UHGV virus genome: UHGV-1366603
Source of the DNA: a virus
Reading direction: 5' to 3' (one strand)
Length of the DNA stretch: 64,000 bases
Of this stretch, positions 7,085 to 59,340 are shown in pieces (position 1 is the stretch's first letter; the number at the start of each line of letters is the position of its first letter). The translations under genes and the position numbers were made by a program. The notes under the pieces are model-generated. The model ran no database searches, was not told the origin of the DNA, and saw only the letters and a list, made by a program, of their open reading frames with translations.

Positions 7085-8050
7085 TTAGCGTGGGCCTGAA
7101 GTTGGGCCATGTACACCGTCGTGGATGTGTACGCTGAAGGTAATACCGGAAATCACCGCATCCTTAACTGTAAAGACACCCACACCTTCACCCGTACCAC
7201 CGTATTTGAAGTTCTTAGCAACTTCCAAATTACCGGTGAACATCGCTTCATTACCCTCTTGCTTAAAGTTCGGCGTTTTATACGTTGTGGAACCGGAGGC
7301 TTCGGTTAGCCACGTTTCTGTTTTAAAGGTAACCGATTTCGACGCTTCGGTATTCCGAACTTCGCATTTCTCATTAATCGTTTTCGTTTCCAGGTTAATC
7401 GAACGTTTTGCGTAAATGAACGCATCTTCTTTGTTGATGTTCACTTTCGAGAGCATCGCGTTCTCAAAACCTAAATCGTCTTCCACCGAGTTAATGTAAT
7501 ACTTATTCCCTTTATGGTCAACGCACTGCCACGACCCGTTAGCGTTATCGAATTGGAATAACCACGCCGCTTTCTCCCCGTTCACCATACTTGTTCTTAG
7601 GGTAACGTGTTTGTCAATCGTTGAGACGTTTAACACATACGCGTTCGACAAGTCATCCGCCATCTGGTTTTCAGGGTCAGCAGACCACGCGTAAACCGCA
7701 TCCTCTAATCGCTTAACGTTAGCGAAATTCAAATCAATCCAAAAATAAATATCGGTTTGCCCTAGACGTAGCAAGATAACATAATCTTCACGCTTAACGT
7801 CTGGGGAATTAATTCGATTGGAATTAAACTTCCACCACTTTGCGGTAATCGTGTTACCGGTTTTAATCGTTAGGTTGTCGGTAGCACCCCCGGCTTCGTG
7901 TACCTTTTCAGCGGTTGAGGAAACTGACTGTACAACGGTAGGGTTCGCAAAGTTGGTTTCAATGGGAATAACACTCACCCGATCCGTACCACGAGGTTTA
8001 TCTTCCGCGACGATACCAATCGAGAAAAAGTCAACGCTGGATTTCTCCAT
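7085..8050 (-). CDS. hypothetical protein (321 aa), possibly virion-associated
   Basis: ORF track; Thr/Asn-rich beta-type composition; lies in the minus-strand structural block. No motif recognised. Confidence 0.55.
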   Translation of the reverse strand: MEKSSVDFFSIGIVAEDKPRGTDRVSVIPIETNFANPTVVQSVSSTAEKVHEAGGATDNLTIKTGNTITAKWWKFNSNRINSPDVKREDYVILLRLGQTDIYFWIDLNFANVKRLEDAVYAWSADPENQMADDLSNAYVLNVSTIDKHVTLRTSMVNGEKAAWLFQFDNANGSWQCVDHKGNKYYINSVEDDLGFENAMLSKVNINKEDAFIYAKRSINLETKTINEKCEVRNTEASKSVTFKTETWLTEASGSTTYKTPNFKQEGNEAMFTGNLEVAKNFKYGGTGEGVGVFTVKDAVISGITFSVHIHDGVHGPTSGPR

Positions 8051-8080
8051 TAGGTCGTTCCTTAGATCGGAAATGTAATC

Positions 8081-8102
8081 AGATATATTTTACTTAGGTG
8101 AG
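8081..8102 (+). promoter_or_regulatory. candidate phage promoter motif AGATATATTTTACTTAGGTGAG, followed by a hairpin at 8104..8130
   Basis: Member of a recurring AT-rich motif family (see findings); sits at the head of the plus-strand block. Confidence 0.3.
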
Positions 8103-8438
8103 TAGGGGCTGAAGTGCGAATTCAGCCCCTATGGGCACGTTTCTTTCGAAACGGAGTTACCATGTGATTAGGAGACAGACCAATGTCTACTGAGAAGAAA
8201 AGCGGATTGGACGAAGTCATCGAATTGTTCAAACGCTACAACCCGGCTATTCCTCGGTAATCATAGTATTACTTAAAATTTACAGATTGTCCCTTTATTC
8301 TGCTACTCGGGATACCGGTAGGGGGTAGGGGGCAATATGTATACGGATATAAATAGCGGAGGTATACGTAGTATACCGACATACTCTTCCCAGAGGAACG
8401 TAGTGACTTCCTTATTCCTTTTTAGGAGAATAAACCTC

Positions 8439-9173
8439 ATGAGAGAATTATTAGACGATATCTTTACCAACACCAGTTTAGAACTTTCTTCTACAGTGGT
8501 TAACGAACTAATAAAACAATCGCAACCTGCTAAGTTAGTCACTGTCAGGGTAGTTAACCCTAAAGATTATCTAGGCTGCGATATCATAAACGGTACGATC
8601 GATGAGTACGCAATTGGTATTTACGCCGACTGGGTCTTCTTTGTTCTTAATACCGAAACCGGTGTCATGTTAACCTACACGATGAGTAGTGATGTCGAAC
8701 ACGAAGTTGTAGCGAAACATATTCGCCACATTGCCAGCACGCCTACCTTTTCCGACGTTACGTTTATTGGGGGAAGCACTATGCTGACGTTATTCTCTTA
8801 CTTCCCACTGTTTAGACATGGGGTAGGGTTAATCAAGCATGTAGAAAACCTTCCCGCTGATGTAGAATTAACGTTGCTCGGTCGGGACATTAGTCTTTAT
8901 CCCTTAAAAGATAACGGTAAGTTATACGGTTTACGTATCTATGTTTCTTGGTTAGAGGGATACCGCGTTATTGAACTGATTGCATCGGATTTAACAAAAC
9001 AAATCCCAGAGGTGGAAACGATTTCTAAAGCCACCCACCTGGTTGAGATTAACCCAGACGATCCGTTTTTACAGTATCACAATGAAATTGCCCTTCGTGG
9101 TATCGCTGCCGTAAAAGGGTGGGGGTGTGCTGAGATTACGAAGGGGTATCTGCTGTTAATTAAAACCGCGTAA
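8439..9173 (+). CDS. hypothetical protein, divergent member of tandem paralog family 1
   Basis: ATG at 8439 preceded by TAGGAGA. C-terminus ..AAVKGWGCAEITKGYLLLIKTA resembles the GW..V...G.QLLF.A tail of the next three genes. Confidence 0.55.
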   Translation: MRELLDDIFTNTSLELSSTVVNELIKQSQPAKLVTVRVVNPKDYLGCDIINGTIDEYAIGIYADWVFFVLNTETGVMLTYTMSSDVEHEVVAKHIRHIASTPTFSDVTFIGGSTMLTLFSYFPLFRHGVGLIKHVENLPADVELTLLGRDISLYPLKDNGKLYGLRIYVSWLEGYRVIELIASDLTKQIPEVETISKATHLVEINPDDPFLQYHNEIALRGIAAVKGWGCAEITKGYLLLIKTA

Positions 9174-9198
9174 GTAAAAACCTAAAGGAGAAAATATC

Positions 9199-9753
9199 AT
9201 GTTTCAAACTGAACTGAAAATTGAAATTATCCAAACCCTTGAAAAAGGCGTAGGCGAACATTTCTTTAGCTGTCCTTATACCGTACTGACCAATACCATT
9301 ATTCAGCCAGGCGCGATGATAGTAGGGGTGAGGGTACAAGCTGTGGAGGAAACCCCGCTGCGTCGCAACATCACTCGTAAAAACCATATCCCATTTAGAA
9401 CGGGTTTTACAGATTACTTTCAGAGCTTACTGAAAGATAGCGTTTGGAAAACGGGCAGCTTCTTCCACGAAGGGAAGACGTCCACGCTGGTTTATAAAGA
9501 AAATACCAAGTATCTGGTTGATTTTCTCTTAGCGCGGCAATACGATTTCTTTCCATCCCCTTCTGGCACCACCCCTGATAATCCAGGTAAGTTATTAAAC
9601 CAAGACGAAGCCGAAGCACTCTTTACAAAACTTCGGAATGAGCAGTGCGATGTTGACGACTGGGAAACATTGATCGCGGTCGCTAAAGCCCACGGTTGGT
9701 ATACTGTACGTAAACTCGGCCAGCAGTTGTTGTTCTTAGCTTATAATGTTTAA
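9199..9753 (+). CDS. hypothetical protein, paralog family 1 (C-terminal GW..V...GxQLLF motif)
   Basis: ORF track; SD AAAGGAG; C-terminus AKAHGWYTVRKLGQQLLFLAYNV. Confidence 0.7.
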   Translation: MFQTELKIEIIQTLEKGVGEHFFSCPYTVLTNTIIQPGAMIVGVRVQAVEETPLRRNITRKNHIPFRTGFTDYFQSLLKDSVWKTGSFFHEGKTSTLVYKENTKYLVDFLLARQYDFFPSPSGTTPDNPGKLLNQDEAEALFTKLRNEQCDVDDWETLIAVAKAHGWYTVRKLGQQLLFLAYNV

Positions 9754-9781
9754 GTAACGAAAACCCTAAAGGAGAGTAAAA

Positions 9782-10933
9782 ATGCGAAATATTATTTCTA
9801 AACCAGGACATGTCAAAATCCTAAAAGAACTGATGGACAGATGCTATAATCAGACTTGGCCTCTGCCAAGCTTAACCATCGAGTCTTCATTACAACGTGA
9901 GTTGTTTGGTTATAACTTGGGCTGCTGTGTACTTACTGAATACAATGAGATTATCGCGCCTGTCGATATCTGTACTTACGATGAAGAAATTGAAGGTTAC
10001 AAGTTCGCGGTTTACACAAATTCTGGACTAAATTACCGTAAACTCGTTGTTAGAGAAAAGAGTAGCAACCGGAAGATTATGTTTAAAGTCTTCCCAAGTG
10101 GTAAAGTCAGTAATTTATGTTTTCAGCTTGAGCAAGTGCCCTTTCACGGTGCGGACATTTTAACTAAACCAGAACTCGCGTTATTAAGCGGGTTAATCGG
10201 CTTTGAAGCAAAAACCATCAAAGTTGAGCAGGAACTTACACAAAACGATTTCGGCTCAAGTTGGTACGAAAGTTTCTTCCGCTACGAAATGTTAAGTGAT
10301 AAAGCTATCAAACTCACTTACCGTTCTACCGACGATCTCGTTTACCACATTTTAATTAGCGGCGAACCCCACCTGATTATTGAAGACAAAGGAGAAAATC
10401 AAATGTCTGCCTTAAAAGACGAATTAGCCCAATTCATTCGTGACGTTGAAGAGAAAAGCAAGAGCGATCATATTTTCTCACAACGCTATCCTGAACTTAT
10501 TGACGAAACCACCGATAGTGTTGTCGATGGTATACGCATTTTCCCAAGTGGTCTTGCAATTTACCGACTGCCTAGCGTTAACCAGCTTAAAGTCATGGAA
10601 ATGCTAAAAGACGTTTTAGCAGAAGCGGGTTGGGAATATCGCTTCGATTGCAATTTCGAAGGGATGGCGTTATTCGTTACAAAGAAAAACTATACCTTGT
10701 CAATCGATCTGCCTAAAAGTCAATACTACAGTTTCTTCCCAAAAGCGTATGACCGCACTGAAAAAGAACCTGCGATGTTACTTGATGCGGCAGAATCCAA
10801 TACGTTAATGATGCATTTGCGGTCAATTGACAAAAAGTTAAATACTAGTCATTTAACGACGATCGGTAAAGATTACGGTTGGAAATCTGTCGAACCGTAC
10901 GGCAGTCAGCTGCTGTTTGTTGCTGACCTTTAA
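9782..10933 (+). CDS. hypothetical protein, paralog family 1
   Basis: ORF track; SD AAAGGAG; C-terminus GKDYGWKSVEPYGSQLLFVADL. Confidence 0.7.
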   Translation: MRNIISKPGHVKILKELMDRCYNQTWPLPSLTIESSLQRELFGYNLGCCVLTEYNEIIAPVDICTYDEEIEGYKFAVYTNSGLNYRKLVVREKSSNRKIMFKVFPSGKVSNLCFQLEQVPFHGADILTKPELALLSGLIGFEAKTIKVEQELTQNDFGSSWYESFFRYEMLSDKAIKLTYRSTDDLVYHILISGEPHLIIEDKGENQMSALKDELAQFIRDVEEKSKSDHIFSQRYPELIDETTDSVVDGIRIFPSGLAIYRLPSVNQLKVMEMLKDVLAEAGWEYRFDCNFEGMALFVTKKNYTLSIDLPKSQYYSFFPKAYDRTEKEPAMLLDAAESNTLMMHLRSIDKKLNTSHLTTIGKDYGWKSVEPYGSQLLFVADL

Positions 10934-11000
10934 TAAGTGAAAATACACTTTCTCTAACTGCCGCGCTTTAGTCGCGGCTTTTGTTAAGAAGGAAATAGAA

Positions 11001-11774
11001 ATGAAAGTCCATTTAGACGATATCTTTAAAACCGAACCGTATATGATCGAAGGTCCGCTAACGTCCCTACTATTCGCCGATAGACTAGATCGTACGTTGC
11101 AATTACAATCGGTCGAATCTGCACCGATTAACGATGTAGAGCGCTACGAGCGTATCAACCATACGCGGGGTGAGTATCGTCGCTATAAGCCAAACTCACT
11201 AACCATCAAACTTTGGAAAGTAAGCACAGGTAAAGTATTAACTTATCGCGCCGTTGGTAGTTATTACATTCAACAGGCCAAAGAGTGGTTAGAAAAAGTT
11301 AAAGAACTGAACTTCGATCTACTGAGCAAAAAACTGCGCGATCATAACGCCAGTTTGCCGATACGTAATTATTTCGCCACGATTGAAAATAGTCGTTGCT
11401 TCGTTTCCAGCAAGTCTATGATCTTACCCGGGGCTGATGTTCAAACAACACTGAAAGATGTGGTTGTGAAGAAAATCTTTCATGAATCTGAACACGTTGG
11501 ATTTCGTATCTATTTAACGCACAAGAGGCCATTTACCGTGATTCATGTTGTTACCGCACCCGAAGGCTCAGCAGTCGTACGTGAACTTCCTGACGCACGT
11601 GACCGCAGCCCTAATGAGCCGCTTTACTTAATGTCAGGAACAAAATCAGAATCTTTGATGTCCCGTTACAGCATGGTTGATGTTGTTGATACTGCTATGA
11701 AGTTAGGTTGGAAAGAAGTACAGCAGCACGGCAAACAATTGCTGTTTATCGCAGATGTAAATCTCAATAACTAA
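11001..11774 (+). CDS. hypothetical protein, paralog family 1
   Basis: ORF track; SD AAGGAAA; C-terminus AMKLGWKEVQQHGKQLLFIADVNLNN. Confidence 0.7.
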   Translation: MKVHLDDIFKTEPYMIEGPLTSLLFADRLDRTLQLQSVESAPINDVERYERINHTRGEYRRYKPNSLTIKLWKVSTGKVLTYRAVGSYYIQQAKEWLEKVKELNFDLLSKKLRDHNASLPIRNYFATIENSRCFVSSKSMILPGADVQTTLKDVVVKKIFHESEHVGFRIYLTHKRPFTVIHVVTAPEGSAVVRELPDARDRSPNEPLYLMSGTKSESLMSRYSMVDVVDTAMKLGWKEVQQHGKQLLFIADVNLNN

Positions 11775-11786
11775 AGAGGTGGTACC

Positions 11787-12365
11787 GTGTACCGATTAAT
11801 AGAAATGAGAAAAGACGTTTGGTTGGAAAACCTCGTCGATGGGGAGCTTGAGGGAATAGAGCTTTCCTTACCAGAGAGAGCGGACACGGTATTGGCCTTT
11901 CTGGTAAAACAGGCAGACCGTGAACCGGTAGGAATCTTCACTGTGGACTATAAAGATCCACGAGGAATTCATTTACGGAACATTTGCAGTGGTTTGGAAA
12001 ACTTACCGGCTAATCCGTTCTTAAACTACGCAAAACGTAAACTCCAAACGGGACAACACCTCTGGGTAACGTTATCGCCTGACGTTAGGATCATACGTGA
12101 CGATTACTCGGCGTTTGTACAGGCAACGAAAGTCAGTCTGTATAACCCGAACGCAGAGCGTACCGATATGCCGTTTATAATTACCTTAGAAGACGATGGA
12201 ACGCAAGAAGGTATTGAGGCAATTACGGAATTAGTAAATTCTTATCCGGTTGCCACTATTGAGTTAGAAAACCCAAACCGATTACCGTTGGGTGACCTGC
12301 TCGAATGGATCGAACTGAATACAGAATTCTTAATCAATTCTCGTCAGTATCGATTCGACGTTTAA
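11787..12365 (+). CDS. hypothetical protein (192 aa)
   Basis: GTG start with AAAGAGGTGG just upstream; no motif recognised. Confidence 0.55.
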   Translation: MYRLIEMRKDVWLENLVDGELEGIELSLPERADTVLAFLVKQADREPVGIFTVDYKDPRGIHLRNICSGLENLPANPFLNYAKRKLQTGQHLWVTLSPDVRIIRDDYSAFVQATKVSLYNPNAERTDMPFIITLEDDGTQEGIEAITELVNSYPVATIELENPNRLPLGDLLEWIELNTEFLINSRQYRFDV

Positions 12366-12369
12366 CAAC

Positions 12370-12400
12370 GGTGGGGTGTAAGCCCCACCTTTTATTTTTT
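12370..12400 (+). terminator. rho-independent terminator (GGTGGGG-loop-CCCCACC + T-run)
   Basis: 7-bp GC stem followed by TTTTATTTTTT directly after the stop of 11787..12365. Confidence 0.6.
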
Positions 12401-12425
12401 GTTCGCTAACATTAAAAATAATCTC

Positions 12426-12447
12426 AGATATATATTACTCAGGTGAG
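12426..12447 (+). promoter_or_regulatory. candidate phage promoter motif AGATATATATTACTCAGGTGAG, followed by a hairpin
   Basis: Contains TATATTAC; lies between the terminator and the first secreted-protein gene; followed by hairpin AGAGTTAA-GAT-TTAACTCT. Confidence 0.35.
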
Positions 12448-12494
12448 AGTTAAGATTAACTCTTTTACTTGTTAACCCCACGAGGAGCAAAACA

Positions 12495-12956
12495 ATGAAA
12501 ATCTTCACTTCCTTTTTAATCGCCCTTTTCGCAATCGGATTCAATACTGCACACGCCGCAATCAATAGCTGGGAACAACTACCGAACCCAGGTCAGACTG
12601 TTTACGAAATTGAAGACACCGCCGGAAACGGACTGTCTATCAACTGTGACACTGAAACTGCGAATCGCAAATTTTACGGTCGTATGGTTTGGTATTACGG
12701 GGAACCTGTAGGTGCAACTAACGCTGAAGACAACACGATGGATATCGTCGTAAATGGCAAAACCTACAACATCCCTACGGTGGATGGCAGTGACAAAGCA
12801 GAGCTCGCTTGGGTGGCTTTCGTTAACGCTATCGGTAACGCCAAAACTTTCAGTGTGAACATCAATGGTAACGAAGCTGCTAACTTTACCGTAGAAGGCG
12901 AACGTCTGTCTGAAACTTTCTTCCAGAACTGTGGACACACCCGTCCTAACAAATAA
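12495..12956 (+). CDS. small secreted protein (signal peptide)
   Basis: N-terminus MKIFTSFLIALFAIGFNTAHA (hydrophobic core, AxA site); SD GAGGAG; two Cys. Confidence 0.65.
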   Translation: MKIFTSFLIALFAIGFNTAHAAINSWEQLPNPGQTVYEIEDTAGNGLSINCDTETANRKFYGRMVWYYGEPVGATNAEDNTMDIVVNGKTYNIPTVDGSDKAELAWVAFVNAIGNAKTFSVNINGNEAANFTVEGERLSETFFQNCGHTRPNK

Positions 12957-12978
12957 GTAATAATCTTTTTTAGAGTGC

Positions 12979-13371
12979 GTGAAAATGAATATCAGAACTA
13001 TACTTTATTCAATCATTATTTTCTGTGCAATCGGTATTACTGGCACTTATGCTTTCGGCGATTCGGACGTCCGCCATTACGAACCGGCTCCTGACTCGCC
13101 CATTATCAACCCGGATGAGTCCCCTACGTTAATGCGCAGTTTCGGTAAACTGCAAGTTTATCGCTTAGTACGTGGTGAAACGTGTACCGGATTACTCATT
13201 GCTGACACCCGTGCACAGGTCTACCAACGTCTGACGGATATCGCCTGCGAACAACCAAAAGTCATGTCGGTCAGTATTCATCCGTTAGAGGTCGGTAACT
13301 ATACTGCTGTGGACTTCTTCCATAATGCAGAACTGATTGGTCGTATCACTTTAAATCGTAGCGCTGAATAA
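12979..13371 (+). CDS. small secreted or membrane-anchored protein
   Basis: N-terminal hydrophobic segment ILYSIIIFCAIGITGTYAFG; start may be GTG 12979 or ATG 12985. Confidence 0.55.
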   Translation: MKMNIRTILYSIIIFCAIGITGTYAFGDSDVRHYEPAPDSPIINPDESPTLMRSFGKLQVYRLVRGETCTGLLIADTRAQVYQRLTDIACEQPKVMSVSIHPLEVGNYTAVDFFHNAELIGRITLNRSAE

Positions 13372-13389
13372 TTTAATGGAGAATTTACA

Positions 13390-13872
13390 ATGAAACGTTT
13401 ACACACCCTGATGCTTTTCGTGGCTATTCTGTTCACAGGCTTTACCTTTAACACAGAAGCGGCTACCGTAAAACAAGCACTTAGCTGTAACCCGGAAGCC
13501 TGGGCTGAACAACCTGGTGCGTGTCCTGACATCAATACGCTCTATACCGACGACGCGACTTATAAAGCCGCAATCGATAAAGCGTTGAAACCTGTCGGAC
13601 TAGACGGGTTATTCGGTAAAGATGGTGTAATGAATGGTCCTGGCGGCGATGTTATTCCCGTGCAAATCAACGGTAAAGTCTGGCTTGAGTCTACCGCTTG
13701 CAAAAGCAATGCTTGTGGTTGGGAATACATCACGACGCTTTATAACCCGCAGACCCATGTCGTGGTAGGTTACTATTACAACGTCGACCCAGGTTACCTG
13801 GTCTGGTTCGGCGATATCGGCGTTAACGAATTCGCCTATCTGGTTAAGAAATACGTAGCTACGGTTAATTAA
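13390..13872 (+). CDS. secreted protein, Ivy-like (candidate periplasmic lysozyme / lytic-transglycosylase inhibitor)
   Basis: Signal peptide MKRLHTLMLFVAILFTGFTFNTEA. Loop ..ESTACKSNACGW.. matches the Ivy-family ..SACKPHDCG.. arrangement (C-x4-C with Lys at position 2), but the loop His is replaced by Asn. Confidence 0.45.
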   Translation: MKRLHTLMLFVAILFTGFTFNTEAATVKQALSCNPEAWAEQPGACPDINTLYTDDATYKAAIDKALKPVGLDGLFGKDGVMNGPGGDVIPVQINGKVWLESTACKSNACGWEYITTLYNPQTHVVVGYYYNVDPGYLVWFGDIGVNEFAYLVKKYVATVN

Positions 13873-13887
13873 TTTAAGGAGTCTGTC

Positions 13888-14298
13888 ATGAAAACGTTTA
13901 TCAAAACTTTACTCGTTGCTGTAACTGTTCTGTTCTCTCTTAACGTAGCAGCAAAAACAATAAAGCTACCGGCGGGTATCAAATACGTCAACAGTACCGA
14001 TGAATTCTACTGCACTGAAATTGACGGCCTGTATTGCCAGACAAAGAATTTGTTTGAATACAAAGGTAACAGATATGTTTTCGTTGTTGAGCAAGGTGGT
14101 GCCTGGTGCTACGACAGCCCTATGTCGGTACTCAACCTGGAAACTTGGAAAGCACAGAAAATTGAATACAAAGACAACCAACTGTGTTCAGGCGAAAACA
14201 AACCGTTCTTCAAAATCAAAAATGGTGTGCCGACTGTAGGTATTATCGACACCTCTGGAGCACCCATCGTTGTAGCTCAGGACAAACTTAAAATCTAA
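13888..14298 (+). CDS. small secreted protein (signal peptide, multiple Cys)
   Basis: N-terminus MKTFIKTLLVAVTVLFSLNVAA; SD AAGGAG. Confidence 0.65.
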   Translation: MKTFIKTLLVAVTVLFSLNVAAKTIKLPAGIKYVNSTDEFYCTEIDGLYCQTKNLFEYKGNRYVFVVEQGGAWCYDSPMSVLNLETWKAQKIEYKDNQLCSGENKPFFKIKNGVPTVGIIDTSGAPIVVAQDKLKI

Positions 14299-14308
14299 GG
14301 AGTAAACC

Positions 14309-14698
14309 ATGCGTCTTATCTGCGCTTTGTTGGCGTTTTTCTCAATCGGAGTTATGGCTTCTACACACATCGACGATTTATTACTTACCCCGGCAACGAA
14401 CACAGACTATCACTACAACCCACCGGGTTTTGAAGTCTGCGAAGGCGATGCAGGCGAATGCCAAGAAGTTGGCGCAGATGGACGCTATATACTCGTAAAA
14501 GCAGACGGCGGGACAACCTGCCCTGCGGGTTATTATTTCGTACTTGACGCTGTAGCAAAAGAGGTACTTCCTGTAACGACCAAAACGTGTGACCCCACAG
14601 TTGTACTAACGCTTGCGAAAAGCAAATCACGTGACCGCCATCTTATCGTCATCGAAGAACGCGGTGAGATGCTAGGCGCTATCGAATTAGATTACTGA
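14309..14698 (+). CDS. small secreted protein (signal peptide, Cys-rich)
   Basis: N-terminus MRLICALLAFFSIGVMAS; SD TAAGGAG. Confidence 0.65.
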   Translation: MRLICALLAFFSIGVMASTHIDDLLLTPATNTDYHYNPPGFEVCEGDAGECQEVGADGRYILVKADGGTTCPAGYYFVLDAVAKEVLPVTTKTCDPTVVLTLAKSKSRDRHLIVIEERGEMLGAIELDY

Positions 14699-14709
14699 TG
14701 TGTAGTCTT

Positions 14710-14746
14710 GACCCCGGTTCGTGCCGATTCGTCCGGGGTCCTTTTT
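14710..14746 (+). terminator. rho-independent terminator (GACCCCGG ... CCGGGGTC + CTTTTT)
   Basis: 8-bp GC stem with a large loop and a short T-run after the secreted-protein cluster. Confidence 0.45.
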
Positions 14747-14777
14747 ACGACCTGTTTTACCTAAAGGAGAATTAAAA

Positions 14778-15254
14778 ATGCGTTTATCTAATGTTTATCA
14801 AGCGGCCCAATTCCATCACGAACTGACGGCTAAGCCTGAATATATTCGCCACAACTTAACGGTGGCTTGGAAACTGCTATTGATTGCTGACGCAGCACGG
14901 CACAACGACCAGGAAACTATTATCAAAACCGTGCGTACTTTACGCCCTATTGACCTGGAAACAATTTGGTCGTTTGACTTAATTCGAATTTATCATCGTC
15001 GTTTTAATGCGGCGGTGGATGCGATACGTCCTTATTTCCACTATTTGCAAGCAACATCAGACTGTGGTCCATCCTTAGAGTGGGTCTTGGTACAAAGCGT
15101 ATGGAGCGATTACATTTATCTCCTATCTTTAGAGACGGGTGAATGCATTATCGCTAACGAGGTATTCTCAACCAACGCTGAAATGTATCGTTCCCACGCT
15201 ACTATCCAGGGTGTCTCACAGCCTATCTTATCACTCACGCACTTAGGGCTGTGA
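14778..15254 (+). CDS. hypothetical protein (~158 aa)
   Basis: ATG at 14778 with AAAGGAG upstream; the ORF-track start at 14721 lies inside the terminator. Confidence 0.55.
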   Translation: MRLSNVYQAAQFHHELTAKPEYIRHNLTVAWKLLLIADAARHNDQETIIKTVRTLRPIDLETIWSFDLIRIYHRRFNAAVDAIRPYFHYLQATSDCGPSLEWVLVQSVWSDYIYLLSLETGECIIANEVFSTNAEMYRSHATIQGVSQPILSLTHLGL

Positions 15255-15262
15255 TTAGCCCG

Positions 15263-15290
15263 GCCCCGCTGTGTACGGGGCTTCTTTTTT
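15263..15290 (+). terminator. rho-independent terminator (GCCCCG-loop-CGGGGC + TTCTTTTTT)
   Basis: Seen directly in the sequence after the stop at 15254. Confidence 0.55.
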
Positions 15291-15308
15291 GCCCAAGGAA
15301 ACTGAAAC

Positions 15309-15917
15309 ATGAACGAAATTACTTTGGTTCGTTTTATTGAAGCGATGCATCTAAACGAAGCTAATCCGCACTCTCCGTTATTCATCGATTTAATGGAGGA
15401 AGAAGTCGAAGGGTTCTTAGCGTACCCGCGTTTGAAAGACTACTTCGAACGTAAAACACCAACCGCTTACGAAAAGCTGATGTACGCGTTAGATAACCGT
15501 ACTACGCTAAACAATACGCCGTTTAAAGCGCTGGAAGCAATAGACCCTACCGGGGGTGCAGGTATCCCACAACGTGTTGTGTTCTACTACATCGACAACG
15601 GACGTATTAAAGCCGACGTTGTAAACTGGATCTCCGAAGGGGAAATCCCAGAAACGCGTACTTTTAACCTCTGTCCGGTAGAAGAAGGTTGGGTTGCAGG
15701 AACGCATTATTCCTATCCGTATCAAAGCATCAAATCACCTTATCTGTATCCGGTGTATTTAGATGACGTTACGCCAGGGAAATGTATTCCCGTTACCAAT
15801 CTGATTTGTTTACTGACGATGGAAGTTGTTGCGTCGGACGCAGGCCAGGCTTGGGTTGAGCAATCGAAGAATATCCAAAACTGGCAGGAGATGGGTTACA
15901 AACTCTATCAGCCGTAA
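15309..15917 (+). CDS. hypothetical protein (202 aa)
   Basis: ORF track; SD AAGGAAA; no motif recognised. Confidence 0.6.
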   Translation: MNEITLVRFIEAMHLNEANPHSPLFIDLMEEEVEGFLAYPRLKDYFERKTPTAYEKLMYALDNRTTLNNTPFKALEAIDPTGGAGIPQRVVFYYIDNGRIKADVVNWISEGEIPETRTFNLCPVEEGWVAGTHYSYPYQSIKSPYLYPVYLDDVTPGKCIPVTNLICLLTMEVVASDAGQAWVEQSKNIQNWQEMGYKLYQP

Positions 15918-15923
15918 TACCAC

Positions 15924-15970
15924 GAGAGAACCTTCGGGTTCTCTCCCTTCTCTTTTATTTTTTTTTCTTT
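15924..15970 (+). terminator. rho-independent terminator (GAGAGAACC-TTCG-GGTTCTCTC + long T-run)
   Basis: 9-bp stem, tetraloop, then TCTTTTATTTTTTTTTCTTTTT. Confidence 0.6.
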
Positions 15971-16002
15971 TTACACCACGCTCCGTGAATATGGAGGTGG
16001 AC

Positions 16003-18507
16003 ATGTTAAAAGTTGAACGTATTGTACTTAAAGGATTTACCGGAATGGGATTACACGAAATCGAAACCTTCGATTTTACTATCCATTCCCCGACCACCAT
16101 TATCCTCGGTGGTAACGGGTGCGGTAAGACCAGCTTACTGTCCGTGTTTCTACCTATCGCACCTTCGAAATCCGAATTCCGTGACGGGGGTTCTTACACC
16201 AACATCTGTTTGGTTAACGACCATCGTTACAAATTTAAGGTTGCACGTAAAGGCAACTCACTGGTTTGCGATATCGAGAACCTGACGACGGGTACCAAAA
16301 TCGTCGAACAAGGTAATGCGAAAGTGTATAACTCTCGTGTAGAAGAAATCACGGGCATTACAAAAGAGATTAAAGAGTTACTGAACGGAGAAGTGCTTTT
16401 AACGGATGCAGGAACGGAGCTGCGTCGTAAGTGGTTCTACCGTTTAAGTACGTCAGACTTAACTTACGCGTTAGGTTTTTATCAACGTTTACGAAAAAAC
16501 CTGACGATGCTAAACGGTGGTATTGAAATCACCAGCCGTAAAATTGCAGAGTTGCGTACCCGCGTAATTGATAACGAGGAAGAACGTCAGCAGTTAGCAA
16601 CACGGTTAAAAGCATTAGAAGTAGATTTACGTGAACTCAACAAACAGATTGAACAACTGCCTGGTCTGAATCGTGACGTTACGGTGGCAACTATTCAATC
16701 GCTATTGCTTAAAATCGAAGCACCGATTAATGCTATCTTGGAACACCGTGGCGGATTACCTACGGAAGAACAGGTAGAGGAAGCACGACGGATTGAAGCC
16801 ACTGCCCGTGAAGCGGTGGTCTCTGCTGAAACAGAACTATCCATGCTAAACAAAGATTTGTCTTTGTTGATGGACGAGTCCACTCGCCAAGATTACCTGA
16901 TGCGGAATCACGAGGGGTTAAAAAACACGGTTGCGAAACTGCGCGAGTTATTAAAGCAGTGGGACACTGAGCATCTTTTCCCTGAACTGTTTGCGGAGAC
17001 CGTTAACATCGACCAGCTTAAAGCAGCGACGGATGCGCGTGTCTGGGGACAACGTTTAGGAACAACGCTGGATGCTATTAAATCAACGGAACGGTTGAAC
17101 GTACTGGAAGAGAAACTGTTGACCTTAGACCAAAACTCATCTGGGTTGCGTGACCGGTTACAACGCGTTGAAAACGTATTGCAGAACCTCAACCACGAAC
17201 GGAATCACTATTTGGAAACTGCCGAGGTTGATTGTCCGCAGTGTCAATTTAAATTCCGTCCGGGTGTCCGTCGATCGCTGCCTGAATTGGAAGAAGCCAT
17301 TCGTGGTCAGATGGAGCAACGTAATACGTTACAGACTCAACTTGATTCCGTATTGCGAGACCGTACGGAATTAGAGTCAGACGTTAATTACATGCGTCAA
17401 GTACGGGAAATTGTTTTAACATACTCGAAAGACCCGGTATTGAGCTTGTTCTTTAAACGACTCCAGGAGCGGAATGTCTTTACGGATAACCGTAGTCAGT
17501 TTGGTAGTTTGTGCGCAGAGTTTGATCGTGAACTTTATTCTGCAATTGAGTACCACGAAACGAAACACCGTTTCGCTAAAGCGGAAAAAGAGTGGGAAAA
17601 TGCAGTTGCAGCGGTAGGTAACGTTGACGGTGCACTACAGCAGAAAATTGCCTTCCAGCAGGAACGTTTGGGTAAGGCAACAGAAACGCTCTCAGAGCGC
17701 CGTAGAGAGCACGCAGTTGCTAATGATACCTTTTGTTATCTAAACGAACTTAAAGCCACTGTAGACAATTTTAATGCGGTTTTTGAGCGTTTAGAGAACG
17801 ATGTTAAGGTAACATTAACCAACACGGTGGTCGAAACGTTATTAAACGCCCGAGAAAACAAGTTGGATGCGTTCACCACAGCACGGGAACGGTACCGTCA
17901 GATGGAAAACGAACTCAACCAACTTACTGCGTTAGAAAAGGAGTTATCAGATTTACAAGCGCAGCAATTCAATAACAAGCTGATGATTCAAGCGTTCTCA
18001 CCTGAGAAAGGGGTATTACGCAAATACTTCTACAACGCTATCGTGAGAATCACGGAATTGATGACGCGGTATATCGAACAAGTCTGGACCTACCCTATGC
18101 GGGTCATGCCGTGCGACTTAACCGACGGTGACTTAGACTACACGTTCCCAGTGCAGTTGAAAACCCATCCTGAGCCGGTACCTGACGTGCGGAAAGGGTC
18201 GAAAGCGCAGCGAGCCATCTTTAATTTGATGTTTCGTTTAACCGCTTACAAAGCCCTGAAACTTCATCAGTATCCGCTACTGTTGGATGAACCGTCAGAA
18301 GGGATGGATGAGGAACACCGAAATAACCTCGTCGGGTTTATTAAAACCCTGGCGAATTCCGGTGAGTTCTCTCAGTTACTGGTGGTATCTCACGAAGCAG
18401 AAATTCATTCAAAACTTAACGAAGCCGCATACTGTGTTATTGAACCTGAAGGCGTAACACTGCCTGCGGTATACAACGAGGGAGTAAAAATTGTCTACGC
18501 AAACTGA
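16003..18507 (+). CDS. Rad50/SbcC/gp46-like ABC ATPase with coiled coil and CPQC zinc hook
   Basis: N-terminal Walker A ILGGNGCGKTSLL; long coiled-coil middle containing ..VDCPQCQF..; C-terminal signature-like GSKAQRAIFNL, Walker B LLLDEPSEGMD and H-loop VVSHE. ATG at 16003 preceded by GGAGGTGG. Confidence 0.7.
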   Translation: MLKVERIVLKGFTGMGLHEIETFDFTIHSPTTIILGGNGCGKTSLLSVFLPIAPSKSEFRDGGSYTNICLVNDHRYKFKVARKGNSLVCDIENLTTGTKIVEQGNAKVYNSRVEEITGITKEIKELLNGEVLLTDAGTELRRKWFYRLSTSDLTYALGFYQRLRKNLTMLNGGIEITSRKIAELRTRVIDNEEERQQLATRLKALEVDLRELNKQIEQLPGLNRDVTVATIQSLLLKIEAPINAILEHRGGLPTEEQVEEARRIEATAREAVVSAETELSMLNKDLSLLMDESTRQDYLMRNHEGLKNTVAKLRELLKQWDTEHLFPELFAETVNIDQLKAATDARVWGQRLGTTLDAIKSTERLNVLEEKLLTLDQNSSGLRDRLQRVENVLQNLNHERNHYLETAEVDCPQCQFKFRPGVRRSLPELEEAIRGQMEQRNTLQTQLDSVLRDRTELESDVNYMRQVREIVLTYSKDPVLSLFFKRLQERNVFTDNRSQFGSLCAEFDRELYSAIEYHETKHRFAKAEKEWENAVAAVGNVDGALQQKIAFQQERLGKATETLSERRREHAVANDTFCYLNELKATVDNFNAVFERLENDVKVTLTNTVVETLLNARENKLDAFTTARERYRQMENELNQLTALEKELSDLQAQQFNNKLMIQAFSPEKGVLRKYFYNAIVRITELMTRYIEQVWTYPMRVMPCDLTDGDLDYTFPVQLKTHPEPVPDVRKGSKAQRAIFNLMFRLTAYKALKLHQYPLLLDEPSEGMDEEHRNNLVGFIKTLANSGEFSQLLVVSHEAEIHSKLNEAAYCVIEPEGVTLPAVYNEGVKIVYAN

Positions 18508-18798: not shown

Positions 18799-18848
18799 GT
18801 TAGAACCCCCTCCTGGGTAACTGGGAGGGCGTTTTACGAGGGAAAACC

Positions 18849-18977
18849 ATGACTGTTGTCAATACTACCAATGCTGCAATTGGCGCTTTATACAACGCGG
18901 AACTAACATGGGGTGCGGGTTTTATCACCGTACTGCTTCTCGCCGCAGCCGCTTTTATCATTGGACGTTGGTTTTAA
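18849..18977 (+). CDS. small membrane peptide (42 aa)
   Basis: ATG with GAGGGAAAACC upstream; sequence MTVVNTTNAAIGALYNAELTWGAGFITVLLLAAAAFIIGRWF. Below the ORF-track size cutoff. Confidence 0.35.
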   Translation: MTVVNTTNAAIGALYNAELTWGAGFITVLLLAAAAFIIGRWF

Positions 18978-19010
18978 TTTCATCTTTTTTGCGTCTGTAA
19001 GGTCTGATAA

Positions 19011-19454
19011 ATGGAAATTTATTTGTTGAACGCACTTTCTAAAATCGGTGAAGAACAAGCGAAAGATTTACTCGCACTTCATTACCGTTACTTAGATCAT
19101 CAAGCAACGATGCTGAAAATCAAAACCGCTGTACCGAAATTAAACGTGCGTCAACTGATCGAAGGCAACTGTGTTGTTCTGATTTATATCGACGATGTTG
19201 CGGTGGGTTATTGCAGTTACCGCAATCGCAACGGGGTACTCAAAATTCGTTCGTTATACGTGCTGCCTGATTACCGTCAACGCGGGGTAATGAAAGAAAT
19301 CTTCAAAGCGATAGCCGCTGATGAAGCATTCGGTGAAATTGCCATTGGGATGTACACGAAGTGCAAAGAAGCGAAAGAGTATTTCATTCGTCGTGGCTAC
19401 AAAGCAACCTATTCTCACGATAAAGAATGGGTGGATTTCAGCAAAACTTTCTAA
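19011..19454 (+). CDS. GNAT-family N-acetyltransferase (putative)
   Basis: 147 aa; ..GYCSYRNRNGVLKIRSLYVLPDYRQRGVMKEIF.. resembles GNAT motif A (acetyl-CoA binding). Confidence 0.5.
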   Translation: MEIYLLNALSKIGEEQAKDLLALHYRYLDHQATMLKIKTAVPKLNVRQLIEGNCVVLIYIDDVAVGYCSYRNRNGVLKIRSLYVLPDYRQRGVMKEIFKAIAADEAFGEIAIGMYTKCKEAKEYFIRRGYKATYSHDKEWVDFSKTF

Positions 19455-19520
19455 AACAATAAAGGCTCTCTTGACGTTCCTCACTATGAGTGTGAGATTT
19501 TTACGTCAGGAGAGCTACTT

Positions 19521-19757
19521 ATGTTAAACAGTTTCGGTGTAGGTGGAATGGATACAAGCATTTGCTGGAAAGAATACGAACGCGCAAAAGCATTTCTCCA
19601 GCATCCCAACGTGGGTAAGATCGGTCAGGTGTGTTTTGGTAAACCTGAACTGACGGCCTGTATTCAAGGTGCGTTAGGAACGCTGCCACCTGAATCACCT
19701 TTCGAGCCTAAGGAGAATCCAGATGTTACCAGGAACCCAAACCCCGTATCTATTTAG
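19521..19757 (+). CDS. hypothetical protein (78 aa)
   Basis: ORF track; no motif recognised. Confidence 0.45.
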   Translation: MLNSFGVGGMDTSICWKEYERAKAFLQHPNVGKIGQVCFGKPELTACIQGALGTLPPESPFEPKENPDVTRNPNPVSI

Positions 19758-20097
19758 TGAACCACTGGATAACAGCGACATCTTACAAATCTGTTATCAG
19801 TGTCACGAAATCGGTGGTAGCGAACTTACGCGGATTAATAAACTACTGTGGCTGATTCCAGAAATCGAATTACCGTTCGTTAAACCGAGTTTGTGGCGTC
19901 GTGGTGCGTGTCGTGAAGCGTATATGCTGTCAAAATTTAACATTAATCTGGAGAAAGTCTGGGAGAAAATGAATGATGCTCAAACCCGAGAACAGATTAC
20001 GCACACGCTGGAATTGCATCTTGCCATGAAACGCCTCGGTCTTGAGCATGAAGGGCTAGAGTCCGTTATCAGTCAATGGGTGAAAAGGAATCGTTAA
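19723..20097 (+). CDS. hypothetical protein (124 aa)
   Basis: ATG with AAGGAGA upstream. Confidence 0.55.
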   Translation: MLPGTQTPYLFSEPLDNSDILQICYQCHEIGGSELTRINKLLWLIPEIELPFVKPSLWRRGACREAYMLSKFNINLEKVWEKMNDAQTREQITHTLELHLAMKRLGLEHEGLESVISQWVKRNR

Positions 20098-20170
20098 TGT
20101 CTAAAACGTATATAGCGATTTTGGTTGAGTTAGCGATTGGCGGAACGCGGTTTATCCCTGTGCATCAATT

Positions 20171-20695
20171 ATGCTTACCTCACTCGGTAAGACCGTTATG
20201 CTAACGATACTTCCAGAATCGGTTATTGACAACGACCTGTTTAACGCCCCTGAGCGCTTCAAGGTCGTTACGATAAATTGCGTAGGGGCAATGGGTCGGG
20301 GTATCGCTTTAGCGTGCAGAGAACGCTATCCTGGGCTTTATCAGGACTACCGGGAACGTTGCTTCGCTAACGAAATACGAATAGGGAATGTGTACGTTTA
20401 TCCCGAGGAAAACTGCATTCTCTTACCAACCAAAACACATTGGAAACTAAAATCCCAGGTTTCTTATGTTATCGCGGGTATCACCGCGTTGGCAGATGCC
20501 GCAGAAAACTTAGAGGGTGGGGTGGCTTTACCGCCGTTAGGGATGGCTAACGGTTGGTTGACAAAAGCTGAACGTCAACAAATCTTTTTGTTTATCGAAA
20601 AGAAACTCGTACCGAGGAGACAACATTACCGTTTCTATTTACCCGATACGCTTTATCAAGAAGCAAAACCTTTAATTCCAAACCTTTTTAAATAG
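20171..20695 (+). CDS. macrodomain protein, TARG1/DarG-like (putative ADP-ribose hydrolase)
   Basis: ..VVTINCVGAMGRGIALACRERYPGLY.. resembles TARG1 ..[24 protein letters not shown]..; downstream ..ILLPTKTHWK.. and ..VALPPLGMANGWL.. parallel TARG1 ..LITKKRASHK.. and ..LSMPRIGCGLDRL.. Start may be ATG 20171 or 20201. Confidence 0.5.
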   Translation: MLTSLGKTVMLTILPESVIDNDLFNAPERFKVVTINCVGAMGRGIALACRERYPGLYQDYRERCFANEIRIGNVYVYPEENCILLPTKTHWKLKSQVSYVIAGITALADAAENLEGGVALPPLGMANGWLTKAERQQIFLFIEKKLVPRRQHYRFYLPDTLYQEAKPLIPNLFK

Positions 20696-20795
20696 ATATT
20701 ATCATTAGGGCACACAACAAAGGAGTTCCAGCTGTCCGCGCCGTGATTTCGTTCTACGGAACACGGAAATGTATAAATCCAACTGGAGAACTAGT

Positions 20796-21482
20796 ATGTT
20801 TCGTATTTTCTTTCTTTTACTGGTAACACTTTTCGCGTTTAACGCATACGCATCCAAATCCGCACCCAGTGCCAAACACCATCGTGAATTCGAAATGATT
20901 CAAGACCGTTTCGAACGTGTAAAACCGTTGATTGTGGAAATCTCCCGAAAGCAGGGCGTCGATCCTAAGTTGATGACCACGCTAATCTATCGGGAATCGC
21001 GGTTTAATCCGAAGGCGTATAATCGAACGTCTAAAGCGCACAGTCTGGTTCAGATGCTACCGAGCACAAAGCGTAATTTGCTAAAACTCTACGGTGCCGA
21101 AATCGGACTTAGTCGTAACGCGGATTTGTATAATCCTCGTAATGCGGTGCTATTGGCTTCCGTCTACGTTAAACATTTAGAAAAGGGGTTGACTAAACGA
21201 CTCAAACGCAAGCCCACTATTGCAGAAATTGCATTGGCTTATCACTGGGGTGAAAGTGGTGCACACGCCAGGATTAAAAGCAAGTCTCGGGCAGCACAAC
21301 GAGAAATGGCGAGCTTTATGAAAGATGCAACGTTCTACAGTGCGAAAATCGACAAGCCTGTAGCATCTCGTCAGCTTGCGTTTGCGAAGAAACCAGAACG
21401 CCAGATTCAGTTAGCGGAAGTTAACCGAATTTGGGATACGATAAACACCAGTTTTCCATTTAAACAAGGAGTCACCCTTTGA
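20796..21482 (+). CDS. secreted soluble lytic transglycosylase (SLT domain), endolysin candidate
   Basis: Signal-peptide-like N-terminus MFRIFFLLLVTLFAFNAYA; SLT motifs ..LIYRESRFNPKA.. (catalytic Glu-Ser) and ..AHSLVQMLPST..; ATG at 20796 has GGAGAA upstream (ORF-track start at 20769). Confidence 0.65.
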   Translation: MFRIFFLLLVTLFAFNAYASKSAPSAKHHREFEMIQDRFERVKPLIVEISRKQGVDPKLMTTLIYRESRFNPKAYNRTSKAHSLVQMLPSTKRNLLKLYGAEIGLSRNADLYNPRNAVLLASVYVKHLEKGLTKRLKRKPTIAEIALAYHWGESGAHARIKSKSRAAQREMASFMKDATFYSAKIDKPVASRQLAFAKKPERQIQLAEVNRIWDTINTSFPFKQGVTL

Positions 21483-21988
21483 GCATCGTTGTAACCGATT
21501 GGTATAAAGGTATCACTAAGGCTACCCAAATTACTGCCCAGGACGTGTACAGTATCGTTCGTAGCAGTAACGAAGACCAGATAAAGTCCGACGAAGACTT
21601 TGCAACGCGTCATGAGTTTTACGATGCCCTTAAAACGGCTTTCGGTGATGACGAAGAAGAAGGTTTAGAGTTTGACTGGAACGTCAACCTTGCCTTGTTG
21701 TGGATTTGCGGATTACGTCCGAGTGTGAAAGACACGGAGCAAGGGAAAGTTCTGTTGTGGCGCTACACCGGTAAATACAATCCGAACCAGGTCTTTAAAG
21801 AAGCGTATATGGAAGCCACTGTAGAGTTACAGAATCTGCTGTTGGGTGAGAACACCTACTGTCAACGCAGCTTCCTGACGATTCTGGAGAAACTGGCGAC
21901 TACACACAAAATCTGGCGTCAAGCAGATGCCCCTGAACACATCTTCGTTCTGGAATATGCTGTGATTCCAAACCAACCGTTCTTTTAA
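21479..21988 (+). CDS. hypothetical protein (169 aa)
   Basis: TTG start overlapping the upstream stop, with AAGGAG upstream. Confidence 0.5.
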   Translation: MSIVVTDWYKGITKATQITAQDVYSIVRSSNEDQIKSDEDFATRHEFYDALKTAFGDDEEEGLEFDWNVNLALLWICGLRPSVKDTEQGKVLLWRYTGKYNPNQVFKEAYMEATVELQNLLLGENTYCQRSFLTILEKLATTHKIWRQADAPEHIFVLEYAVIPNQPFF

Positions 21989-21994
21989 TACTTG

Positions 21995-22030
21995 CCCCTA
22001 ATCCGATTGGATTAGGGGTACTTTTATTTA
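21995..22030 (+). terminator. rho-independent terminator (CCCCTAATCC-GATT-GGATTAGGGG + T-run)
   Basis: 10-bp perfect stem followed by TACTTTTATTTATT. Confidence 0.6.
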
Positions 22031-22051
22031 TTCCCCTAAAGGAGCAAAGGT

Positions 22052-22531: not shown

Positions 22532-22583
22532 CTTTTTACAAAACCCTTAGTTGATTTGAACAAACCTAAAGAGGACTATTAAA

Positions 22584-23516
22584 ATGACTTTTCCATCTGA
22601 AGTAATTTACGAACTGGCTAACACACTGCGCCGTCGTTATAACTACCATATGCTGCAAACCAGCGTAGGTGCAACCGCTACCTTTCTGCGCAACCATTTC
22701 CTAGGCAGTAATCAATCTTCAATTACGCAGGAAATGGTTTTCTCTATCGATCGAACCACCAAAATTCTTCCGATTGACAGTGCAATTGCGGTTCAAAATG
22801 GTGATATGTTCAACTTCTCCATGGGAATGCGCCATACAACCGTTACTGTTGACCCAAACGTAGGGATCGAACATTCTTTCATGCGCAACCCGTATCCTCT
22901 CCCGGATAGCTGGTTCGTTGTTGTAGAACAAGGGGTGAATCAGTACGAAGTTGTTGCGGCACGCGACGAGTCTTTCTTTGACTTGGGGCAGATTTCGCGC
23001 CGCCTGGAAATTGCTCTCGAACTTCGCCAAGGCAATATCGGATTAAATGGGGGCGTCGTCTACTTCATCCTGAGCAACTGGGCGCATGTGAGCTACGTCC
23101 TGAGAAAAGCTGACGCAACGTTCCACGCAACAGAAGTAAATTACCTCTCCGCTGAGAATGAAGATCAAGACGAAGAAGAAACCGTCCCTGGTACAGAAGT
23201 CGCCGTTTGCGAAGACTACGATGATCTGAAATCTGTGCTTGTTAAGCGCGATGTTTTCGAATCGTTAAACCTGGATTTCCCTGGTGACGAAAATGAAATA
23301 TCCGTAGCTGACCTGGTAGAAGCATTGTGTCAGAAAGACCAAGCTAATGAAATCAGTGACGAAGAAGCGGAACTCTTCCAAGTTCAACAACTCGTCAGCA
23401 AGGTTATCGGCGGCCAGGAAATCGTTGACACCCTTATGGCTTTACCAGCGAAGAAACGCACTCAAAAGTACATTCGTGAACTGGTTCTTAAAAATCTGGG
23501 TCAAACCAAAAAGTAA
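22584..23516 (+). CDS. hypothetical protein, paralog pair 2 member, acidic C-terminal region
   Basis: N-terminus MTFPSEVIYELANTLRRR and ..LNGGVVYFILSNW...EV shared with 23577..24125. Confidence 0.6.
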   Translation: MTFPSEVIYELANTLRRRYNYHMLQTSVGATATFLRNHFLGSNQSSITQEMVFSIDRTTKILPIDSAIAVQNGDMFNFSMGMRHTTVTVDPNVGIEHSFMRNPYPLPDSWFVVVEQGVNQYEVVAARDESFFDLGQISRRLEIALELRQGNIGLNGGVVYFILSNWAHVSYVLRKADATFHATEVNYLSAENEDQDEEETVPGTEVAVCEDYDDLKSVLVKRDVFESLNLDFPGDENEISVADLVEALCQKDQANEISDEEAELFQVQQLVSKVIGGQEIVDTLMALPAKKRTQKYIRELVLKNLGQTKK

Positions 23517-23576: not shown

Positions 23577-24125
23577 ATGTTTCCATCGTCTGAATATTTA
23601 ACCCACCTGGCTTACGGTATTCGTCGTGGTTCTGTTTTCCGTACACGTTTAAAGGATATAAATTTCCTGGCTAATTTCTTATTTGATCGTTTGGGAGATG
23701 GCAATAGCGTTTACAAAAAGATCACCACAACACAACTTTATTCCCTTATAGCAGCATCGGAAATTGTACCTACAGATATTTGGCGATTCAAACGGTATTG
23801 CGAGGGAATTACGATCAGTTTTCTTGATCATTCTCCGATTACCGTTGAAATCGTCGATCGCGTTGATATTAATAGTGAAGTATCAGGTTGGAAGATTCTG
23901 TTCGATTGTGGCAATCGTTATGCGGTACTTGGTTCCTCTGATGAGCGTGACTTCCCATTCGACAAACCCTACTACTACCTCAACGAGGATGAATTCCCGG
24001 ATAAAGAATCCAATATCTTTTTAAACGGGAATACCGTTTACTTCATTTTTCGTACCTGGAACGATGTTGCTGCTATGATTGCTCAAGGCGTCATCGATTA
24101 CCGTAAACTAGAAGTCGACATTTAA
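23577..24125 (+). CDS. hypothetical protein, paralog pair 2 member
   Basis: N-terminus MFPSSEYLTHLAYGIRR and ..LNGNTVYFIFRTW...EV. Confidence 0.6.
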   Translation: MFPSSEYLTHLAYGIRRGSVFRTRLKDINFLANFLFDRLGDGNSVYKKITTTQLYSLIAASEIVPTDIWRFKRYCEGITISFLDHSPITVEIVDRVDINSEVSGWKILFDCGNRYAVLGSSDERDFPFDKPYYYLNEDEFPDKESNIFLNGNTVYFIFRTWNDVAAMIAQGVIDYRKLEVDI

Positions 24126-59337: not shown

Positions 59338-59340
59338 TCA

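Follow-up and report, generated by a model that had tools for sequence, protein, structure and literature searches.

The window analysed here is a 64,000-nucleotide stretch of the UHGV virus genome UHGV-1366603. On its plus strand it carries a gene for a stand-alone macrodomain protein, named macro gene in the following. Its product is probably a DarG2-like orphan macrodomain and orthologous to AdfM, the anti-DarT factor of chimalliviruses; it would erase the marks set by DarT2. A preliminary description, made from the nucleotide sequence, had presented the open reading frame (ORF) at 20171-20695 as a TARG1/DarG-type macrodomain protein and as a plausible phage counter-defence factor. An uninterrupted plus-strand ORF of 174 amino acids lies exactly at 20171..20695, and the landmarks described with it are all present: the Lys-containing TK segment, the GWL loop, and a GNAT gene and two ORFs without Pfam family upstream. 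The proposed role of a DarG-type counter-defence eraser gained support from sequence, profile, fold, active-site residues, gene order and the literature on AdfM (PMC13309987). Two parts of the ORF are distinguished:

20198..20695, plus strand: coding sequence of the AdfM-like, DarG2-type stand-alone macrodomain, 165 amino acids plus stop codon, assigned by PDB, NCBIfam and PADLOC matches, fold and orthology.
20171..20197, plus strand: nine-codon extension of the mechanical ORF, probably untranslated; its ATG at 20171 is poorly kept in relatives.

Single-sequence phmmer searches against the PDB matched the macro protein to the DarG macrodomains of M. tuberculosis (5m3i, E 2.5e-20) and T. aquaticus (TaqDarG, 5m31/5m3e, E 5.8e-18). 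A profile of 45 homologues matched DarG with E values of 3.2e-34 and 2.8e-31, and TARG1 with just 4e-4. Since the profile reaches E 3e-34 against DarG and only 4e-4 against TARG1, the protein is classified as a DarG-type rather than a TARG1-type macrodomain. The NCBIfam model antitoxin_DarG was matched with E 6.5e-31 (108 bits) at profile positions 7-154 of 338, which represent the macrodomain half. The PADLOC model of DarG was likewise matched in its macrodomain half only (E 3.5e-31). An exhaustive HMMER search in 1.84 billion representatives yielded 4366 relatives at E <=0.001. The best 146 of these 4366 relatives were aligned and are the basis of all family residue counts given below.

The AlphaFold2 model, calculated from the 45-sequence alignment, consists of one compact domain with a predicted local distance difference test (pLDDT) of 95.0 and a predicted template-modelling (pTM) score of 0.91. 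The predicted fold is unambiguously that of a macrodomain. The top match of a Foldseek search against the PDB was 5m3e, TaqDarG with ADP-ribose (E 2.2e-13, template-modelling score 0.84). Apo TaqDarG, M. tuberculosis DarG and T. africanus DarTG followed in this order, and TARG1 was ranked sixth (E about 3e-7). DarG2 of the bacterial DarTG2 system (5M31/5M3E, 5M3I; PMC5179494) is the best match of the window protein in sequence and in fold. Of the earlier TARG1/DarG designation, the DarG part was upheld by sequence, profile and Foldseek comparison, and the TARG1 part was not.

The active-site segments were located in the 165-residue protein, to which all residue numbers refer. They were mapped onto TaqDarG by alignment to 5m31/5m3i and by the published residue list (PMC5179494):

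20270..20278, plus strand: codons of T25-I26-N27, equivalent to T20/N22 of TaqDarG and N23 of PhiKZ AdfM; positioning of ADP-ribose and thymidine.
20429..20443, plus strand: codons of T78-K79-T80-H81-W82 in the PTKxHW motif, aligned with T79/K80 and H82/W83 of TaqDarG.
20531..20560, plus strand: codons of P112-L121 (PPLGMANGWL), the ADP-ribose diphosphate-binding loop, aligned with G117-L123 of TaqDarG (GAGNGGL).

The Lys-containing TK segment reads LLPTKTHWKLKS and includes the motif PTKTHW. By alignment, K79 is equivalent to the catalytic lysines K80 of TaqDarG and K84 of TARG1. K79 and N27 also align with K78 and N23 of the PhiKZ protein; the active-site Asn and Lys of AdfM are both present. 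The exchange K80A inactivates TaqDarG and N22A lowers its activity, and W83, which corresponds to W82 of the macro protein, was proposed to stack on thymine (PMC5179494). The exchange N23A lowers the activity of PhiKZ AdfM (PMC13309987). N27 and K79 are invariant in the family (146/146 representatives), W82 is found in 141 and H81 in 119 of the 146. The window protein has thus conserved the residues T20/N22, T79/K80 and H82/W83 and the G117..G121 loop of DarG2.

AdfM (anti-DarT factor macro) has been described as PhiKZ gp104, PhiPA3 gp108, Goslar gp83 and Asesino gp217 (Morgan et al., Cell Rep 2026; PMC13309987). PhiKZ gp104 takes DarT2-made ADP-ribose off a TNTC oligonucleotide of single-stranded DNA (ssDNA), rescues E. 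coli from DarT2 toxicity and is imported into the phage nucleus. Without AdfM, the sensitivity of PhiKZ and PhiPA3 to DarTG2 rises by three to six logs. The list of AdfM proteins includes Asesino gp217, which localizes to the nucleus, and a macrodomain protein of the AdfM kind is present in about half of the chimalliviruses (PMC13309987). The macro protein shares 62.8% identity with Asesino gp217 (164 amino acids), 64.6% with SPN3US gp070 and 34% with PhiKZ gp104 (E 5e-27). Like AdfM, it is a stand-alone DarG2-like macrodomain of about 160 amino acids from a phiKZ/SPN3US-type jumbo phage with the same catalytic Asn and Lys, and the genes flanking Asesino gp217 are those flanking the macro gene. 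It differs from PhiKZ gp104 by the GMANGWL loop, by a C-terminal helix region about 20 residues longer and by its origin from an uncultivated phage. Every feature of AdfM membership that can be assessed in silico was found in the predicted protein, in agreement with orthology. By the same comparisons, it is classed neither as a strict DarG antitoxin nor as a TARG1 orthologue. The function was already published for the AdfM family in 2026, and the window protein adds an ordinary member.

The proposed mechanism starts with the host toxin DarT2, which would move ADP-ribose from NAD+ to thymidines within TNTC-type motifs of single-stranded phage DNA. This mark would block replication and packaging of the phage DNA. 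To bind the ADP-ribose, the phage enzyme would use the pocket of its macrodomain, which is built from the loop with T25/N27 and the diphosphate loop G115-L121. Lys79 is predicted to cleave the N-glycosidic bond between ribose and thymine, with His81 and Trp82 adjacent. Asn27 would position the substrate, and Trp82 possibly stacks on thymine. The expected products are unmodified, replicable and packageable DNA and released ADP-ribose. The protein would act purely as an enzyme and not by toxin sequestration, since it has no DarT-binding C-terminal domain. Import into the phage nucleus, the site of the replicating genome, is probable by analogy with the orthologues of PhiKZ, PhiPA3 and Asesino.

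AdfN, AdfA and AdfB apply the same strategy, a phage-borne factor that neutralizes DarT, with folds unrelated to the macro protein (PMC11825919, PMC11481870). AdfN, a T4-like orphan NADAR protein, is a glycohydrolase specific for the guanine-linked ADP-ribose that DarT1 produces and is ineffective against DarTG2, while AdfB is thought to bind the toxin (PMC11825919, PMC11481870). With AdfN, the window protein shares the character of an orphan antitoxin-like glycohydrolase.

Several points weigh against the assignment as an AdfM orthologue that erases DarT2 marks. A substrate in DarT2-modified DNA, an anti-DarTG2 role and nuclear localization are presumed for the window protein. Asesino gp217 has been studied for localization only; enzymatic activity and protection from DarTG2 have been demonstrated only for the AdfM members of Pseudomonas phages (PMC13309987). 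The loop of the enterobacterial clade reads GMANGWL versus GCANGGL in PhiKZ AdfM and GxGNGGL in cellular DarG, and specificity may be somewhat shifted. In the window, tblastn with PhiKZ gp54 and gp69 revealed neither ChmA nor PicA (no match better than E 0.7); this search covered less than one third of the genome of about 222 kb with distant queries. Finally, the Pfam family Macro (PF01661) was matched with 19 bits, below its gathering threshold of 22 bits. The latter score was not counted against a macrodomain, since fold, PDB matches and the models specific for DarG all agree; some of the 78%-identical relatives carry a precomputed PF01661 match. For annotation, Pfam by itself misses this AdfM-like protein, and databases label its relatives 'phosphatase' or 'Appr-1-p processing protein'.

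Such labels would suit a general hydrolase of protein-linked or small-molecule ADP-ribose derivatives, similar to TARG1, MacroD or Poa1p. Activities of this type are mono-ADP-ribosylhydrolase, O-acetyl-ADP-ribose deacetylase and ADP-ribose-1''-phosphate phosphatase. The macro protein belongs to PHROG 335, which bears the label 'phosphatase', and several orthologues are named 'Appr-1-p processing protein' or 'protein-ADP-ribosylation protein' in GenBank; such names were passed on by annotation and do not come from tests. A relationship in fold to TARG1, Poa1p and viral macrodomains can be detected, and promiscuity is frequent among macrodomains. In the profile comparison, however, DarG was ahead of TARG1 and Poa1p by 30 orders of magnitude. 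TARG1/C6orf130 (4J5S) shares with the window protein the macrodomain fold and the equivalent catalytic lysine in a T-K motif, but it is distant (profile E 4e-4; 17-18% identity in Foldseek). The partner residue Asp125 of TARG1 is missing in the window protein, and the DarG-specific H82/W83 pair is conserved. TARG1 releases Glu-linked ADP-ribose from proteins, whereas DarG-type enzymes act on thymidine-linked ADP-ribose. The substrate of the PhiKZ orthologue is ADP-ribosylated ssDNA, and the effect of deleting this orthologue is DarTG2-dependent (PMC13309987). A general hydrolase is an unlikely identity for the macro protein.

The diphosphate-binding loop deserves a separate consideration. G117-A-G119-N120-G121-G122-L of TaqDarG aligns with G115-M-A117-N118-G119-W120-L of the macro protein; G115 and G119 are conserved, while Ala stands for G119 and Trp for G122 of DarG2. 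The preliminary description had read GWL in place of the GLD of TARG1 as a sign of altered chemistry. The lysine of the TARG1 Lys84/Asp125 dyad is present as K79, and no Asp is located at or beside the position aligned with Asp125 (GMANGWLTK). In the HMMER alignment, D125 of TARG1 falls one residue past the Leu of GWL and not on the Trp. The DarG of T. aquaticus, with demonstrated activity, likewise has no such Asp (GAGNGGLPW). Trp120 as a mark of altered chemistry was rejected; its position is variable in the family, and the TARG1 Asp is missing from an active DarG too. The consensus of the loop over the family representatives is PPLGCGNGGL. Position 120 is occupied by Gly in 103 and by Trp in 10 of the 146, otherwise by Glu, Gln, Arg, Lys or His, and position 117 by Ala, Ser or Thr in about 20.

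A different use of the loop would be a retuning by Trp120/Ala117 for the reversal of another nucleic-acid ADP-ribosylation, e.g. on RNA by other host toxins, on guanine or by a phage ADP-ribosyltransferase (ART). W120 is invariant across the 45-member clade of enterobacterial phage sequences, with GMAHGWL as the loop of Asesino gp217; PhiKZ AdfM and most DarG proteins have Gly instead. The exchange G119E makes TaqDarG less active, and its loop 117-122 shifts upon ligand binding (PMC5179494). On the other side, Ala in place of G119 is also found in the active PhiKZ AdfM (GCANGGL). Trp at the variable position 120 recurs in two long DarG-like proteins of 374 and 498 amino acids. All catalytic and base-stacking residues are kept, and the window showed no homologue of ART or DarT. 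Such a different nucleic-acid substrate is quite improbable. By alignment, the enterobacterial clade retains every catalytic residue while bearing a clade-specific loop, and W120/A117 may survive just as a specificity variant of low probability. There is a slight chance that the enterobacterial AdfM sub-clade (GMANGWL) differs in substrate range from PhiKZ AdfM and cellular DarG2, with marks of other DarT variants, RNA or protein as targets. It would then represent a broader anti-ADP-ribosylation factor and not a simple DarG2 mimic.

Very unlikely is a non-catalytic ADP-ribose binder, acting as reader or sponge, or a decayed gene. The sub-threshold Pfam score and the altered glycine-rich loop could be taken in this sense, but the ORF is intact and the catalytic Lys and Asn are invariant in 146 diverse representatives. 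In addition, 263 assembly blocks contain the identical protein sequence, and the very confident model superposes on an active enzyme.

A toxin partner was not found. The neighbours of the macro gene have no DUF4433 ADP-ribosyltransferase (darT) domain, and tblastn with P. aeruginosa DarT2 revealed no homologue at E below 3 in the 64-kb window. Pfam scans of 20 further window ORFs detected no NADAR, ART or other ADP-ribose-related domain. The macro protein ends after 165 amino acids and has no C-terminal DarT-binding domain, in accordance with the DarG profile match confined to 7-154 of 338. These observations support an orphan gene within the window. The window protein is not a component of a toxin-antitoxin system, since both the C-terminal DarT-interacting domain and an adjacent darT, as present in DarTG2, are missing. 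The antitoxin half of a phage-borne DarTG module, suggested by DarG antitoxin profiles as best model matches, can practically be dismissed with only the macrodomain half matched at 108 bits, far under the NCBIfam equivalog cut-off of 250 bits, with GNAT, two small ORFs and a soluble lytic transglycosylase (SLT) as neighbours, and with no DarT homologue detected in the window.

The AdfM counter-defence family would be extended by this protein to a widespread, uncultivated SPN3US-like jumbo phage, and this may help in the choice of jumbo phages that resist DarTG2-carrying Enterobacteriaceae. The remaining interest is minor and concerns the invariant clade Trp in the ligand loop, the domain missed by Pfam and a micro-ORF that overlaps the start of the macro gene:

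20097..20204, plus strand: conserved micro-ORF of 35 amino acids; its TAA stop overlaps the macro start (ATGcTAA); conserved in a 92%-identical (L012) and a 78%-identical relative (L013) and called as a gene at locus L014.

The start of the macro gene itself was revised. The reading frame proposed earlier is real, and its start is probably the ATG at 20198 (165 amino acids) instead of 20171 (174 amino acids). The Met aligned with residue 10 of the 174-residue ORF is the first residue in 44/44 homologues with lengths of 160-177 amino acids. The ATG at 20171 is changed to ATA in the 92%-identical relative and deleted in the 78%-identical relative. The ATG at 20198 and its context gttATGcTAAc are kept in both. 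Because the homologue starts and the context of the ATG at 20198 are conserved and the ATG at 20171 is not, the alignments place the true start almost certainly at 20198, and the first nine codons of the longer ORF are probably untranslated. The micro-ORF translates into MSKTYIAILVELAIGGTRFIPVHQLCLPHSVRPLC and is preceded by a Shine-Dalgarno-like sequence, AAAGGA. The overlap of its TAA with the macro ATG suggests translational coupling of the two genes as a possibility. SPN3US gp071 (82 amino acids) starts similarly to the micro-ORF, with MQKTIIGIMV.

The window encodes split RNA polymerase beta subunits of the phiKZ type (57712..63507), together with an SbcC/SMC-like protein, a UvsX-like recombinase, an RNase H-like nuclease and jumbo-phage virion proteins. 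A megablast search of positions 18500-22600 against the phage collection gave no match. The phage is therefore not close to any deposited genome, and its context was drawn from protein-level searches. With the macrodomain as tblastn query, 238 phage records were obtained. Most are SPN3US-like phages of Salmonella and Escherichia (about 65% identity), jumbo phages of Erwinia (55-63%) and phiKZ-like phages of Pseudomonas. The exact macro protein occurs in 263 public assembly blocks, on metagenomic contigs of 220-226 kb. The window belongs to a common, widespread and uncultivated lineage of SPN3US-like jumbo phages. SPN3US and Asesino are nucleus-forming by experiment (review PMC13282480). From these relatives alone, nucleus formation may be expected of the window phage as well. 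Stand-alone DarG-like macrodomains with about 41% identity to PhiKZ gp104 were also observed in the Escherichia phages vB_EcoP_DE5 and 1-6af, with genomes of about 77 kb; the presence of an AdfM-type gene in these non-jumbo phages indicates that the gene is not restricted to nucleus-forming phages.

The surroundings of the macro gene, listed for context, comprise the following features:

19011..19454, plus strand: GNAT acetyltransferase (Pfam Acetyltransf_1, 2e-08; PHROG 3810).
19521..19757, plus strand: orf78, without Pfam family.
19723..20097, plus strand: orf124, without Pfam family.
20769 or 20796..21482, plus strand: SLT transglycosylase (Pfam SLT, 4.4e-14).
21479..21988, plus strand: orf169, in conserved order downstream of the SLT gene.
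21993..22020, plus strand: strong terminator-like hairpin directly after orf169, with a 12-bp stem, six G-C pairs and a T-run.

The hairpin probably closes a transcription unit that holds the macro and SLT genes. The order SMC, small ORFs, GNAT, orf78, orf124, macro, SLT and orf169 is common to the window, SPN3US (gp080..gp067) and Asesino (gp207..gp219). The preliminary description had placed the macro gene in a small block with GNAT and two unknown ORFs. According to tblastn, this block is indeed shared: SPN3US and Asesino have GNAT, orf78 and orf124 in unchanged order, with other small genes placed in between. Beside PhiKZ gp104, only the macro gene was recognizable, and GNAT, orf78 and orf124 were not found. 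A functional module of GNAT, orf78 and orf124 with the macro gene was rejected on account of the varying intervening genes and the missing block beside PhiKZ gp104.

The SLT transglycosylase, read from the ATG at 20796, the start chosen by gene callers, has a hydrophobic, signal-peptide-like N-terminus, MFRIFFLLLVTLFAFNAYAS. Its orthologue in Asesino is annotated as a putative endolysin. The tail-fibre-like protein of 2378 amino acids encoded at 50546..57682 bears another SLT domain. Downstream, the adjoining plus-strand ORFs 22584..23516 (310 amino acids) and 23577..24125 (182 amino acids), both without Pfam family, are paralogues (26% identity over 191 amino acids, E 3e-09) and have the motif VYFI..W..V in common. 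About 13 consecutive plus-strand ORFs at 7085..15917 (129-383 amino acids) are without any Pfam family and constitute typical jumbo-phage dark matter. For the SMC/SbcC-like ORF at 15826..18507 (plus strand, 893 amino acids, TTG start), the assigned 5' end probably lies too far upstream. On identical contigs, gene callers gave a protein of 834 amino acids, and the match to PHROG 77 starts from residue 55.

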